Below, piece by piece: positions 5,033 through 7,605 of a DNA stretch of 11,099 bases. Source of the stretch: a virus. The stretch is from the UHGV virus genome UHGV-0313617; one strand, given 5' to 3'. How positions within the stretch are numbered: the stretch's first letter is position 1; every line of letters starts with the position of its first letter. Both the position numbers and the translations under genes were made by a program. The notes below the pieces were generated by a model. The model was not told the origin of the DNA and did not search any database. It saw only the letters and a program-made list of their open reading frames with translations.

Positions 5033-5323
5033 ATGGATAAGCTAAACGAGTGGTTATTCGCCCTTGCGTGTCTTGCTGGTGGCTTCGTAGGCGCACGCAT
5101 TCATGGCGAGGCAACGAAAGGGCCGTTGAACTTCGTTTTATATATCGTGGTTGGCTTCCTGTGTGCCATATTTGGTGCTCCAGCTATTGCCGAGTGGTCT
5201 GGTTTGTCTGGCGAGCGCACTGTCGCCGGTTTGGGCTTCGTAACTGCCATCTTCTGGATGCCAATAGCTGACCGGATCCGGGAGACAATTGCGACGCTAC
5301 ACCTTCCGGGGGGCGCGAAATGA
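5033..5323 (+). CDS. Putative holin (three predicted transmembrane segments, charged C-terminus)
   Basis: 96 aa. Hydrophobic segments WLFALACLAGGFVGA, LNFVLYIVVGFLCAIFGAPAIA and VAGLGFVTAIFWMPIA. Sits immediately upstream of the endolysin. Stop overlaps the next start (ATGA). Confidence 0.7.
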   Translation: MDKLNEWLFALACLAGGFVGARIHGEATKGPLNFVLYIVVGFLCAIFGAPAIAEWSGLSGERTVAGLGFVTAIFWMPIADRIRETIATLHLPGGAK

Positions 5324-5565
5324 TTATTACCGTCCTGTTGTTTGTTATCATAGGGGCTTCGTCCCTGTTTAACGTGTATGCGCCGTCCGTCCAGGACGGC
5401 ATCTTAGGCCGGGTGTTGTATCTGTTAACGGCAATGGTCTGTATTATCGGATTGTTGCAAACAGGAGACGTATCAGATACCACCTGGACCGCGTTAATCT
5501 GGCTGTTTGCATTGCGCACCCTGCGTAATGCTGTTTTGAATGGGGTAAAACATGCGATTCAGTGA
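5320..5565 (+). CDS. Second holin-like small membrane protein (holin, antiholin or partner)
   Basis: 81 aa with 2-3 hydrophobic segments (IITVLLFVIIGASSLF, ILGRVLYLLTAMVCIIGLL, WTALIWLFAL) and a basic C-terminus. Overlaps both neighbours. Confidence 0.65.
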   Translation: MIITVLLFVIIGASSLFNVYAPSVQDGILGRVLYLLTAMVCIIGLLQTGDVSDTTWTALIWLFALRTLRNAVLNGVKHAIQ

Positions 5566-6043
5566 CAACGGTCTACGATTTACGGCAGCCTGGGAGGCAT
5601 TCAGCCCAGTGCCGTATTTCGCGACCAAGAAAGAGCAGGCCCGCGGCCTGTACACCTGGGGCTATGGTCACACCGGCACTAATCCGCCACGAAGCATTAC
5701 CCGTGCGGAAGCGCTGGAACTGCTCAAGCGAGATGTGGCGTATGCCGAGGACTGGGTGAACAAATACGCACATCCGAGCATTAACCAGGCGCAATTCGAC
5801 GCGCTGGTGGATCTGGTAATCAACGCCGGTCCTGGTCCGATCGTGCCGGATGACGTCGCGAACGATTTCGATGATGCGGTGCGACTGGGCGACTGGGCGA
5901 AGGTCCGTGCTATTCTGCCGCAGTTCCGCAAGCAAGGCGGATCGGTGCTCTTAGGTCTGGTCCGTCGCGCAATCGGCAGGCAAGCACTATTCGAGGGTAA
6001 GCAGTGGGACGTTGCCGAGAAAATCGGGCGTAACGCAGCATAA
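5552..6043 (+). CDS. Endolysin, phage lysozyme (glycoside hydrolase family 24-like)
   Basis: 163 aa. Motifs typical of T4/P22-type lysozymes as I recall them: N-terminal Glu (WEAF), GYGHTG, NQAQFDALVDLVINAG, and a C-terminal RRAIGRQALF. Positioned after the holin genes. Confidence 0.8.
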   Translation: MRFSDNGLRFTAAWEAFSPVPYFATKKEQARGLYTWGYGHTGTNPPRSITRAEALELLKRDVAYAEDWVNKYAHPSINQAQFDALVDLVINAGPGPIVPDDVANDFDDAVRLGDWAKVRAILPQFRKQGGSVLLGLVRRAIGRQALFEGKQWDVAEKIGRNAA

Positions 6044-6059
6044 TACGAGGTAACACAGT

Positions 6060-6473
6060 ATGTTAAAAAGCATTCTTGATCATAACGCCGACGCACTTGC
6101 TGCACTGGCTAAAACCGAAGACCCTGGCGCACGCGCTATCATCGCGGACACTATCAGCCATGCAGGCGTCTTTGACGCTAAGCTGCCGAGTGTTCCGGAA
6201 AGAAAGCCCGTGAAAAGTGCTACCGTGACTATCACACCGAATTCAGTCGCAGTTGACGGAACGGCTACTGCTTCTGTTGACGTCTTGCCCGCTGACGCGA
6301 CTAACAAGACAGGGGTCTGGGTGTCTACGAACCCTGCCGGTGCAGAAATCGATGCAAAAACTGGCAAAATCACAGCAAAATCGGCAGGTGGCGTTTATAT
6401 GTTTTGGGTGGCTGCCGACGGTAGTGGGGTGCTGGGGTCTGCGACCATCAACGTAACGGAAAAAGTAGAATAA
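6060..6473 (+). CDS. Big_2 (bacterial Ig-like) domain protein of unknown role
   Basis: 137 aa with a GAGG Shine-Dalgarno 9 nt upstream. The C-terminal ~85 aa (ATVTITPNSVAVDGTATASVDVLPADATNKTGVWVSTNPAGAEIDAKTGKITAKSAGGVYMFWVAADGSGVLGSATINVT) match the Big_2 beta-sandwich pattern. No signal peptide or transmembrane segment. Confidence 0.7.
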   Translation: MLKSILDHNADALAALAKTEDPGARAIIADTISHAGVFDAKLPSVPERKPVKSATVTITPNSVAVDGTATASVDVLPADATNKTGVWVSTNPAGAEIDAKTGKITAKSAGGVYMFWVAADGSGVLGSATINVTEKVE

Positions 6474-6479
6474 AACACA

Positions 6480-6503
6480 AGCCCGGAATCAACCGGGCTT
6501 TTT
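6480..6503 (+). terminator. Rho-independent terminator after the lysis cassette
   Basis: Stem AGCCCGG (6480-6486), loop AATCAA, stem CCGGGCT (6493-6499), then a T-run to 6503. Confidence 0.75.
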
Positions 6504-6508
6504 ATTGC

Positions 6509-6537
6509 TTGACTCGCAACCAACATAGGCCCATACT
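6509..6537 (+). promoter_or_regulatory. Weak promoter candidate carrying two GCAACCAA motifs
   Basis: TTGACT (6509-6514), 17-nt spacer, CATACT (6532-6537, poor -10). GCAACCAA at 6516-6523 and 6538-6545. A strong Shine-Dalgarno (GAGGAGGAGGA, 6548-6558) follows. Confidence 0.35.
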
Positions 6538-6568
6538 GCAACCAAACGAGGAGGAGGAGTAACACATC

Positions 6569-6655
6569 ATGGCGCGTAACGATATTTATGTAATAGCAAT
6601 ATGGTCCGCAGCGGCCTTTATTGGAATGGCAATTTGTGAGGTGATGAATGGCTGA
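6569..6655 (+). CDS. Candidate 28-aa hydrophobic micro-protein
   Basis: Read by hand: MARNDIYVIAIWSAAAFIGMAICEVMNG. GAGGAGGAGGA lies 10 nt upstream. The stop TGA sits inside the sequence AATGGCTGA that contains the next ATG. Confidence 0.4.
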   Translation: MARNDIYVIAIWSAAAFIGMAICEVMNG

Positions 6656-6722
6656 GTTAATCCGCCTTATGGCGCGAGATGAACACGTAAAAGTCACATT
6701 CTACGATGGTGGGAAGTGTTGA
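6648..6722 (+). CDS. Candidate 24-aa micro-protein
   Basis: Read by hand: MAELIRLMARDEHVKVTFYDGGKC. Start overlaps the upstream micro-ORF. Its stop (6720-6722) is one nt before the ATG at 6724. Confidence 0.3.
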   Translation: MAELIRLMARDEHVKVTFYDGGKC

Positions 6723-6723
6723 G

Positions 6724-6936
6724 ATGATTAGACAAGTATTCATGAGCACGCAGGCCACACGCCTGAAAGAGCTACGCAAACAACTCGAAGGCTTGCGCCG
6801 ATTCGAACGAACGGCAACGGCAATAGGCATGTCAATCAGTGAGCGGATCGAGATACTATCTCAAATACGCTACACAGAAGGCGCCATACGCGAAGTAGAA
6901 AGCATGTTAACCCGATACTACGGTCGCGCCGTTTAA
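6724..6936 (+). CDS. Hypothetical small protein (70 aa; alternative start at 6706)
   Basis: ORF in the track as 6706..6936. The ATG at 6724 is immediately after the upstream stop (TGTTGAGATG). Helical, charged sequence. A terminator follows. Confidence 0.5.
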   Translation: MIRQVFMSTQATRLKELRKQLEGLRRFERTATAIGMSISERIEILSQIRYTEGAIREVESMLTRYYGRAV

Positions 6937-6943
6937 CCCTCCC

Positions 6944-6969
6944 AGCCCGCCGATTTGGTGGGCTTTTTT
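6944..6969 (+). terminator. Rho-independent terminator
   Basis: Stem AGCCCGCC (6944-6951) pairs with GGTGGGCT (6957-6964), with one G-U pair. Loop GATTT. T-run 6964-6969. Confidence 0.65.
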
Positions 6970-6983
6970 GTGCCTGTTATAAT
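6955..6983 (+). promoter_or_regulatory. Extended -10 promoter candidate for the packaging operon
   Basis: TGtTATAAT at 6975-6983 (perfect TATAAT at 6978-6983 with an upstream TG). A weak -35 TTGGTG (6955-6960) lies 17 nt upstream, inside the terminator's 3' arm. Confidence 0.5.
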
Positions 6984-7053
6984 CCCCCTTAGATGGCAGG
7001 GCCGTCTCCTATGTTGCCGATGGTCGGCGCATATGCACAAAAGGGCTTAAATC

Positions 7054-7605
7054 ATGGCAGAAATCAAAGTTAAGGGCCGTCGCGCCAAACTGGACGGTAG
7101 AGTGGCAGTTACCCCGCGCCGTAAACCAGGCGAGCAAACCGAACATACCAATCTCGGACCTGAGATCGAATATGGCAAGCGTCGTAAAGGCGGCAAATGT
7201 GGGCGCCCGACAGACTACCGCACTGTGTATTGTGACCAGCTTCGTCGCTATTTCGCCGATGCCGTAGCCTGGCAGATCAACTACTCCGACAAGGGGGCTG
7301 CGCAGGTAATCCCTCGCAACAAAATGCCAACCTTCGGCAGATTTGCCGCGGAAATCGGTGTGGGCGTCGCTTGCCTGTATCGCTGGGCGCGCGCACATGA
7401 GGAGTTCGCCGAGGCGATGGCGGACGCTATGGAATTGCAGAAAACCTTCCTGATGGAAGCTGGCGGCGTGACAATCGCGGCGGGCTTCGCTACGTTCCTG
7501 CTTAAAGCCAACCACGGAGTCCGCGACGATATCCCACTGGATGACGACGAAGATGATAACGGCGACGTCGTTGTTGAGCCTACCGGCAAAGGCCAGGGTG
7601 AGTAA
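7054..7605 (+). CDS. Terminase small subunit
   Basis: 183 aa with an AAGGG Shine-Dalgarno 8 nt upstream. The central region (KMPTFGRFAAEIGVGVACLYRWARAHEEFAEAMADAMELQKTFLMEAGG...FLLKANHG) resembles HTH-type small terminase subunits. Acidic C-terminal tail. Stop overlaps the large-terminase start (TAATG). Confidence 0.75.
   Translation: MAEIKVKGRRAKLDGRVAVTPRRKPGEQTEHTNLGPEIEYGKRRKGGKCGRPTDYRTVYCDQLRRYFADAVAWQINYSDKGAAQVIPRNKMPTFGRFAAEIGVGVACLYRWARAHEEFAEAMADAMELQKTFLMEAGGVTIAAGFATFLLKANHGVRDDIPLDDDEDDNGDVVVEPTGKGQGE

Follow-up and report, generated by a model that had tools for sequence, protein, structure and literature searches.

Extra genes with their own promoter and terminator, inserted between conserved modules, are reportedly a feature of lambdoid phages such as HK97 and HK022, where they are called morons. 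The sequence analyzed here, UHGV virus genome UHGV-0313617 (11,099 nucleotides [nt]; hereafter the window), belongs to a Dhillonvirus (HK578-like) phage and carries at 6509-6970 three tiny open reading frames (ORF1, ORF2' and ORF3) which, as far as their sequence tells, resemble an accessory cassette of the moron type that contains a variable slot. The likeness lies in a sigma-70-like promoter and a terminator of its own (both sequence matches), a position between conserved modules, and a content that varies among relatives. However, morons were defined in temperate phages and are prophage-expressed, whereas Dhillonviruses are treated as virulent; furthermore, this unit holds several genes, and one of them, gp59, is lacking in none of the relatives read that far. 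Our preferred reading, to which we give a probability of roughly 0.7, is that 6509-6970 is a self-contained accessory unit in which ORF1 is a membrane micro-gene, ORF2' is a deletion remnant, and ORF3 is gp59. The cassette thus comprises an overlooked but conserved membrane micro-gene, the stump left by a deletion, and an ordinary conserved small gene.

Each of the three frames has a close counterpart in described phages. Direct homologues of ORF1 (75% identity, tblastn) are SSL-2009a orf65 (AV954_gp65, YP_008550178.1) and Shigella phage 1b WOZ53407.1, both hypothetical proteins with the same position, promoter, Shine-Dalgarno sequence and hydrophobic core; they differ in being 29 amino acids (aa) long and in having a 3' end that overlaps another second gene, ORF2B. 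Full-length ORF2 corresponds to the 56-57-aa hypothetical proteins KarlBarth bas17_0064 (QXV81980.1) and WF5505_00011 (QBQ80511.1), whose first 23 residues are nearly identical to ORF2' and whose genes share the same ATGGCTGA overlap with ORF1, but the window lacks residues 25-57. The equivalent of ORF3 is gp59 of Sodalis phage SO-1 (phrog_20931), located in the same place before a terminator and the gene for the small terminase subunit; there is no difference of substance, although the window copy follows a truncated ORF instead of gp58. As a type of protein, ORF1 recalls AcrZ, MgtS, MgrB, KdpF and SgrT, small single-pass inner-membrane proteins of enterobacteria that modulate larger membrane proteins. 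Like the AcrZ-type proteins it is shorter than 50 aa, with one hydrophobic helix and charged ends, has a ribosome-binding site of its own and is conserved as a peptide, but it has no sequence relationship to them and is phage-encoded.

Comparison with relatives shows a locus with a fixed frame and a changeable interior. A blastn search with 6400-7060 matched 157 phage records, nearly all of them coliphages of the genus Dhillonvirus (HK578-like); KarlBarth (Bas17) alone aligned over the full stretch (89% identity), and in most other records the match begins at window position 6712, covering ORF3 and the downstream sequence alone. The stretch from the terminator to gp58/gp59 was compared in 18 relatives picked across the similarity range. 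Their usual order is terminator, promoter (P1), Shine-Dalgarno sequence, ORF1, optional cargo gene, palindrome, gp58, gp59 and terminator, while in the window ORF1 is followed by ORF2', ORF3 (gp59) and the terminator, with gp58 and the palindrome absent. The slot after ORF1 holds nothing, ORF2A (the full-length form of ORF2'), ORF2B or a truncated ORF2A. EE09, Teewinot and LM40P1 have lost ORF1, SO-1 has an internal deletion in it, and all four keep gp58 together with holins and endolysin; conversely, gp58 is deleted and ORF1 kept in KarlBarth, IMGVR_UViG_3300013837_000002, L029, L031-L035 and the window. Upstream of ORF1, a 70-aa gene (phrog_16851) is inserted in 101114BS4 and EK99P-1. The initial annotation had described three tiny, tightly coupled ORFs between lysis and packaging modules. 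This description held base for base, including the Shine-Dalgarno sequence 9 nt before the first ATG, the overlaps and the frames (start positions modulo 3 of 2, 0 and 1, hence three different frames); PHROG matches on both flanks place the cassette between those modules, and the overlap and abutment geometry that would permit translational coupling is present. The tight coupling of the three ORFs is nevertheless the result of modular gene insertion and deletion, not of attenuation.

The pattern of substitutions indicates that ORF1 is a genuine conserved gene under purifying selection. Among 15 sequences its ratio of nonsynonymous to synonymous polymorphism (pN/pS) was 0.185, compared to 1.12 and 2.49 in the other sense frames, with variable sites at codon positions 1/2/3 numbering 6/4/17 of 24; among 21 distinct sequences, the broken SO-1 copy included, it was 0.23, compared to 1.1 and 2.2-2.5. 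Antisense frames gave 0.37 where third positions coincide, but with stop codons, and 1.2-1.8 in the other two. The initial annotation had pointed to conservation of the reading frames across related phages as a check, and this conservation was found: pN/pS was 0.10-0.23 for ORF1, full-length ORF2A and ORF3, and none of the 21 distinct ORF1 sequences has an in-frame stop codon. Furthermore, every ORF1 copy has a Shine-Dalgarno sequence at the correct distance, even behind the additional upstream gene of 101114BS4 and EK99P-1. ORF1 was matched in 111 phage records by tblastn (109 near full length), all named Dhillonvirus or coliphage-type.

Despite this distribution, ORF1 has largely been overlooked by annotation, as was suspected at the outset: no annotation lies beneath the match in 42 of 60 among the matches listed. 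The gene is 26 aa long in typical relatives (consensus MARKDIWVLAIWTTAAFIGMVICELI; 26-29 aa overall) and reaches 28-29 aa where a second gene follows, its last codons then carrying the Shine-Dalgarno sequence and ATG of that gene (GAGGTGATnnATGGC). Called ORF1 proteins in a 15-billion-protein collection comprised only the 29-aa (90-nt) versions, the 26- and 28-aa forms being absent. The default gene-calling limit of Prodigal is 90 nt, a length that only the 29-aa versions reach, so this pattern fits a gene-caller length cutoff. In IMG/VR, the ORF1 copies recovered by pattern scan all lie on contigs of 42.5-45.2 kb; a pattern scan of GTDB, one genome per species, found no bacterial or prophage copy. 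Where something has been annotated, it is not always the same frame. Minus-strand ORFs cover the promoter and ORF1, with ORF1 itself unannotated, in JL1 (gp04; L015 699-881) and EK99P-1 (gp61; L011 1002-1130), and both are probably misannotations since the substitution pattern supports plus-strand ORF1. In Opt212, gp05 is ORF1 called as 49 aa from an upstream start. A 100-aa minus-strand ORF in the window itself (6395-6697), considered as an antisense gene, was rejected; it runs through the terminator and promoter.

The ORF1 product appears from its composition to be a hydrophobic, single-helix membrane-type peptide, in agreement with the hydrophobic character first ascribed to it. Residues 6-23 form an 18-residue hydrophobic stretch with a mean Kyte-Doolittle value of 2.19 and Hessa free energies adding up to -0.75 kcal/mol (grand average of hydropathy for ORF1, 1.09), flanked by charged ends: MARND at the N terminus (R3/D5) and E24 near the C terminus. 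Among 11 ORF1 variants 13 columns are invariant, including R3, D5, W12, F17, C23 and E24; only 2-5 residues follow the helix, and there is no lipobox. By the positive-inside rule, the peptide should be oriented N-in/C-out, and the spacing of A10, A14, A15, G19 and C23 resembles helix-packing motifs, which may point to a membrane partner. Comparisons of ORF1 with PHROG (E <= 0.01), Pfam (E <= 0.1) and NCBIfam (E <= 1) gave no match. A more specific role is possible, though we hold it tentatively and consider it rather doubtful: ORF1 could be an early membrane micro-protein that binds a host inner-membrane protein and alters the outcome of infection, for example, by neutralizing a membrane-anchored defense system or by keeping the DNA of a superinfecting phage out of the cell, with the slot behind it serving as a hot spot for exchangeable counter-defense cargo. 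Two published leads were set aside in this context. The product of the Dhillonvirus anti-Tmn gene ORF35 is described as rod-shaped, with helices in its N-terminal part and a beta-sheet at the C terminus, and is, judged by that description, unlike the three products here; the membrane proteins of the KanT1 paper belong to the cor locus and not to this cassette.

ORF2' is, as alignment with its relatives indicates, the stump of a 56-57-codon accessory gene (ORF2A) cut by a deletion that also removed gp58. Its ATG (6648-6650) lies within the ATGGCTGA overlap, 2 nt before the ORF1 stop, and its own stop codon is at 6720-6722. Full-length ORF2A (MAELIRLMARDEHVK...) follows ORF1 in WF5505, KarlBarth and one IMG/VR contig, with a pN/pS of 0.12. 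Its AlphaFold2 model (pLDDT 70) consists of a helix, three strands and a second helix, for which the best structural neighbor had E = 0.24; ORF2' keeps only residues 1-24, the first helix and first strand, the cut falling after codon 23. Aligned to KarlBarth, the window has a 91-nt gap straight after GGGAAGT, and relative to WF5505-type genomes it lacks ~1.3 kb comprising the 3' part of ORF2A, the palindrome and the whole of gp58. The deletion could have arisen from a KarlBarth-type genome (91 nt, G microhomology) or from a full-length genome (~1.3 kb, GGAAnTG microhomology): both fit the sequences. Since the break lies a few nt before the gp59 start, the ORF2' frame stops 1 nt ahead of the gp59 ATG; both its 24-codon length and its 1-nt spacing to ORF3 are thus products of the deletion.

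The truncated allele is not confined to the window. A search of Logan and ENA assemblies, made through the 76-aa read-through form of ORF3, found the identical junction in five public assemblies from other samples (L031-L035), so the junction is not an assembly error and the allele circulates; in IMG/VR the exact junction had no match. The five assemblies differ in their ORF1 alleles, and the gene upstream is in either a 55-aa or a 137-aa form, while the six ORF2' copies differ from one another at only two positions. The parent family is itself tiny, with two phages in the phage collection and four clusters (90% identity) in a 5.8-billion-protein search; an exhaustive profile search of 1.84 billion proteins gave two real representatives and added one divergent 57-aa relative. 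A 997-aa tandem-repeat translation considered as a further relative was rejected as an artefact, its score being the sum of 11 weak repeat matches. ORF2A is decaying elsewhere too: five internal codons are deleted from the L029 copy, and a cysteine is missing in P0001.

An unrelated gene, ORF2B (57 codons, MAFKPQRD...), fills the same slot in Opt212, SSL-2009a and Shigella phage 1b. Relatives of ORF2B with ~58-60% identity occur in Pectobacterium and Pantoea phages, so this small gene is exchanged between unrelated phage groups. The linker GAGGTGA(T/C)nnATGGC precedes both second genes in relatives, and this common linker, together with the presence of ORF2B in other phages, marks the place after ORF1 as a slot in which cargo genes are exchanged. 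Neither ORF2', full-length ORF2A nor ORF2B had a match in PHROGs, Pfam or NCBIfam.

ORF3 is an ordinary conserved phage protein, the genus-wide gp59, as its family match implies: residues 1-70 align with positions 1-70 of 70 in phrog_20931 (E = 3e-47), the single family that ORF3 hit in PHROGs, Pfam and NCBIfam. Its pN/pS is 0.10, with 7/1/19 variable sites at the three codon positions, and its relatives are all at least 81% identical over their full length, except for three shorter, fragment-like sequences. The conserved start is the ATG at 6724, one nt past the ORF2' stop, although the mechanical ORF list begins ORF3 at a window-specific upstream ATG (6706; 76 aa). AlphaFold2 predicts a two-helix hairpin (mean pLDDT 95) that had no significant PDB match (best E at least 0.5, including designed hairpins, CdsO and CHMP3); these generic hairpin matches say nothing about function.

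The start of gp59 appears to rely on whatever gene precedes it. In typical relatives (AV129, WF5505), this is gp58, a 380-aa protein carried by most relatives; it combines a calcineurin-like phosphoesterase domain (phrog_704) with a weak helix-turn-helix (HTH) match, and its stop codon and the gp59 start codon overlap in the sequence ATGA. In these full-length genomes the gp59 ATG follows GGAAATGTTGAA, with no strong Shine-Dalgarno sequence, and the two features together suggest that gp59 depends on translational coupling. In both gp58-less junction types a stop codon still overlaps or adjoins the gp59 ATG: in the KarlBarth type, ORF2A is fused in frame to the last two gp58 codons, while in the window type ORF2' ends 1 nt upstream. 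Directly upstream of gp58, in most relatives read (L003 1835-1862), lies the palindrome that is absent from the window, GGACCGTGG-TATATTGT-CCACGGTCC. Its loop, TGGTATATT, resembles an extended -10 element; in LM40P1 the two arms have changed in a compensating way; and the WF5505 record labels the palindrome a terminator, even though there is no T run behind it. One possibility is that the palindrome is the operator of a second promoter, bound perhaps by the gp58 HTH domain; another is that it forms an RNA hairpin.

The signals framing the three ORFs (Table 1) support a small separate transcription unit, since a promoter follows one terminator-like hairpin and a second hairpin closes the stretch; the promoter and both hairpins are conserved among the relatives. 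The upstream hairpin occupies the same place in all relatives read and is annotated as a terminator in WF5505 and WFI. P1 matches the consensus at 9/12 positions, and its hexamers are nearly invariant across relatives while the spacer is partly variable. The Shine-Dalgarno sequence of ORF1 in relatives is GAGAGGAG, AAGGAG or ACGAGGAG at the same distance; an expansion to three to four GAG units is found only in the window and L034, while the near-identical alleles L032 and L035 carry ACGAGGAG at that site. This expansion looks like triplet slippage and would alter ribosome-binding strength. In Maverick (L010 686-760), the -10 region of P1 has been deleted between two GCAACCAA repeats, leaving ORF1 and its Shine-Dalgarno sequence intact. 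Between the cassette terminator and the small terminase gene, at 6975-6983, the window contains TGTTATAAT, an extended -10-like element without a -35, which escaped the consensus scan and is a candidate for the promoter of the packaging/structural operon.

Table 1. Positions of the cassette, its signals and its flanking genes in the window, and of ORF2B in three relatives
Feature	Position	Strand	Remarks
Holins	5033-5323 and 5320-5565		PHROG match
Endolysin	5552-6043		PHROG match
Intrinsic-terminator-like hairpin closing the lysis unit	6479..6500	+	AAGCCCGG-loop-CCGGGCTT, then T run
Promoter P1, sigma-70-like	6509..6537	+	TTGACT (-35), 17-nt spacer, CATACT (-10)
Shine-Dalgarno sequence of ORF1	6548..6559	+	GAGGAGGAGGAG; 9 nt before ATG 6569
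ORF1	6569-6655	+	28 aa, MARNDIYVIAIWSAAAFIGMAICEVMNG; stop codon 6653-6655
Shine-Dalgarno sequence of ORF2	6638..6644	+	GAGGTGA; inside the last codons of ORF1
ORF2'	6648-6722	+	24 aa, MAELIRLMARDEHVKVTFYDGGKC; truncated ORF2A
Deletion junction	6717..6719	.	GGGAAGT/GTTGAG; sequence GGGAAGTGTTGAGATGATT
ORF3 = gp59 (SO-1 numbering)	6724-6936	+	70 aa; phrog_20931
Intrinsic-terminator-like hairpin closing the cassette	6944-6964, T run to 6970	+	annotated terminator in WF5505
Small terminase subunit	7054-7605		PHROG match
ORF2B	L006 871-1044, L007 871-1044, L013 1070-1243		57 aa

Under our preferred reading, host RNA polymerase would transcribe the unit from P1, as suggested by its consensus match and conservation, and ribosomes loading at the strong Shine-Dalgarno sequence would make ORF1. 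The peptide may then insert as a single N-in/C-out inner-membrane helix and act in trans, probably by binding a membrane protein, a proposal prompted by its hydrophobic helix, its small-xxx-small residues and selection at the amino-acid level. Translation of ORF2' would start at its own Shine-Dalgarno sequence inside the 3' end of ORF1, and the 24-aa product is probably inert. Its termination beside the gp59 ATG could nonetheless let ribosomes reinitiate on gp59, which lacks a good Shine-Dalgarno sequence; the ORF2' stop and gp59 start would thereby stand in for the gp58-gp59 ATGA overlap of full-length relatives.

The position and size of ORF1 invite other explanations. The initial annotation had likened the peptide to a small membrane toxin or lysis-accessory peptide, which as a holin-like, antiholin-like or depolarizing factor would aid killing or the timing of lysis; ORF1 is indeed a hydrophobic single helix of type I toxin size (28 aa) that adjoins the lysis cassette and has a strong Shine-Dalgarno sequence. 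We regard this role as unlikely. A terminator and its own promoter separate ORF1 from the lysis genes, and the four phages in which ORF1 is absent or disrupted keep their holins and endolysin. Its features are not those of a holin (at least 60 aa, with a charged C-terminal tail) or a spanin (lipobox or periplasmic domain), and phages of the HK578 group already have a two-component spanin, being listed with that of the Jersey family (PMC6139136). As for a toxin, ORF1 matched no Hok, Ldr, TisB, Ibs, Fst or other family in Pfam/NCBIfam, and a consensus scan of the minus strand over 6500-6700, which a weak promoter could escape, found no promoter-like site. Its Shine-Dalgarno sequence is strong and exposed, in contrast to the low toxin translation of type I systems, and a depolarizing peptide expressed from a host-type promoter would be expected to trigger the holins early. 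That the small ORFs are untranslated, and the region conserved for a role of the DNA or RNA itself, is scarcely credible: most genomes leave ORF1 unannotated, but substitutions in ORF1, ORF2A and ORF3 fall mainly at third positions, other frames have ratios of at least 1 save for the one antisense shadow frame with its stop codons, Shine-Dalgarno sequences are correctly spaced in all copies, and neither an Rfam family nor an unusual fold is present.

Alternatively, ORF1 could be a cis-acting leader or arrest peptide that controls gp58/gp59 (ORF2/ORF3 in the window) by attenuation or stalling. The short frame comes straight after a promoter, with larger genes following it; most relatives have ~13 nt between its stop codon and the conserved palindrome upstream of gp58; and some arrest peptides (TnaC, SecM, MifM) are conserved at the amino-acid level. 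This kinship with leader peptides or coupled regulatory cassettes, also proposed initially, did not survive comparison, and we consider it very improbable. Linkage is not obligate, since ORF1 occurs without gp58 and the palindrome, and gp58 without ORF1; ORF1 has four different downstream neighbors, and the other gene upstream of it in two phages means that it is not the 5' end of the transcript. There are no tandem Trp, His, Leu, Phe or Thr codons, and the whole peptide is conserved instead of one motif. The hairpin of the relatives has no T run and leaves the gp58 Shine-Dalgarno sequence uncovered, while for 6544-6970 of the window the RNA fold scores z = -0.9, its only stable conserved hairpin is the 3' terminator, and it contains no terminator/antiterminator or Shine-Dalgarno-sequestering structure after ORF1. 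No Rfam family reached its gathering score, sub-threshold matches falling only over the two flanking terminators. Furthermore, a peptide of 26-29 codons is still wholly inside the ribosome exit tunnel at termination, making a MifM-type sensor of membrane insertion impossible. For ORF2', the alternative to an inert remnant is a deletion-born micro-peptide kept by selection. Six sequences that differ in sample of origin and flanking background all have the frame intact, behind a good Shine-Dalgarno sequence, but with two substitutions among them such intactness is expected from descent alone; the peptide has lost the C-terminal helix and two of three strands of the parent fold, and the parent gene is rare and decaying elsewhere. 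A function for the 24-aa product therefore seems to us quite improbable.

Several observations weigh against our preferred reading, or at least temper it. Promoter activity, translation and membrane insertion are all inferred for the three ORFs, and a literature search found no transcriptome or ribosome-profiling data for Dhillonvirus. Maverick, with ORF1 intact and no P1 -10 region, implies that P1 is not the sole possible route of transcription. ORF1 is missing in several relatives (111 tblastn records compared to 157 holding the region), and its absence from a sizeable minority means that it is dispensable under some conditions. In the collections searched (phages, IMG/VR, GTDB), ORF1 had no homologue outside Dhillonvirus genomes, besides lacking a family match. 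For the rest of the unit, two differences among six copies are too few to assess selection on the 24-aa peptide, and the coupling of gp59 to ORF2' is based on geometry and at most two independent deletion events.

The locus has no bearing on a long-standing open question; its main value lies in annotation and in a lead toward a very small membrane effector. A gene of 26-29 codons, conserved and under selection in ~110 coliphages, including members of the BASEL collection, is missing from most of their records, and two records carry a spurious opposite-strand ORF in its place. Some Dhillonviruses have been studied for therapy or biocontrol, and should ORF1 prove to target a membrane protein of the host, those phages would have a further effector, and a very small one. 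The locus also offers a natural example of alternative cargo genes behind a shared linker that holds a Shine-Dalgarno sequence and start codon inside the preceding gene, of deletions that preserve stop/start coupling to the next conserved gene, and of a truncated allele circulating on different phage backgrounds.

Two neighboring genes of the window have features of their own. The gene after the endolysin (6060-6473) consists of the 55-aa gp57 (phrog_11068, residues 1-48) fused to a C-terminal Big_2 Ig-like domain (Pfam E = 4e-9); the 55-aa form is the only one in many relatives, and each form is found beside the truncated cassette (L031 and L034 versus L032 and L035). Farther upstream, just before a large helicase gene (491-2755), a 109-aa ORF (151-480) matches phrog_9366, labelled 'transposase', with E = 1e-62, alongside weaker HTH-type matches.

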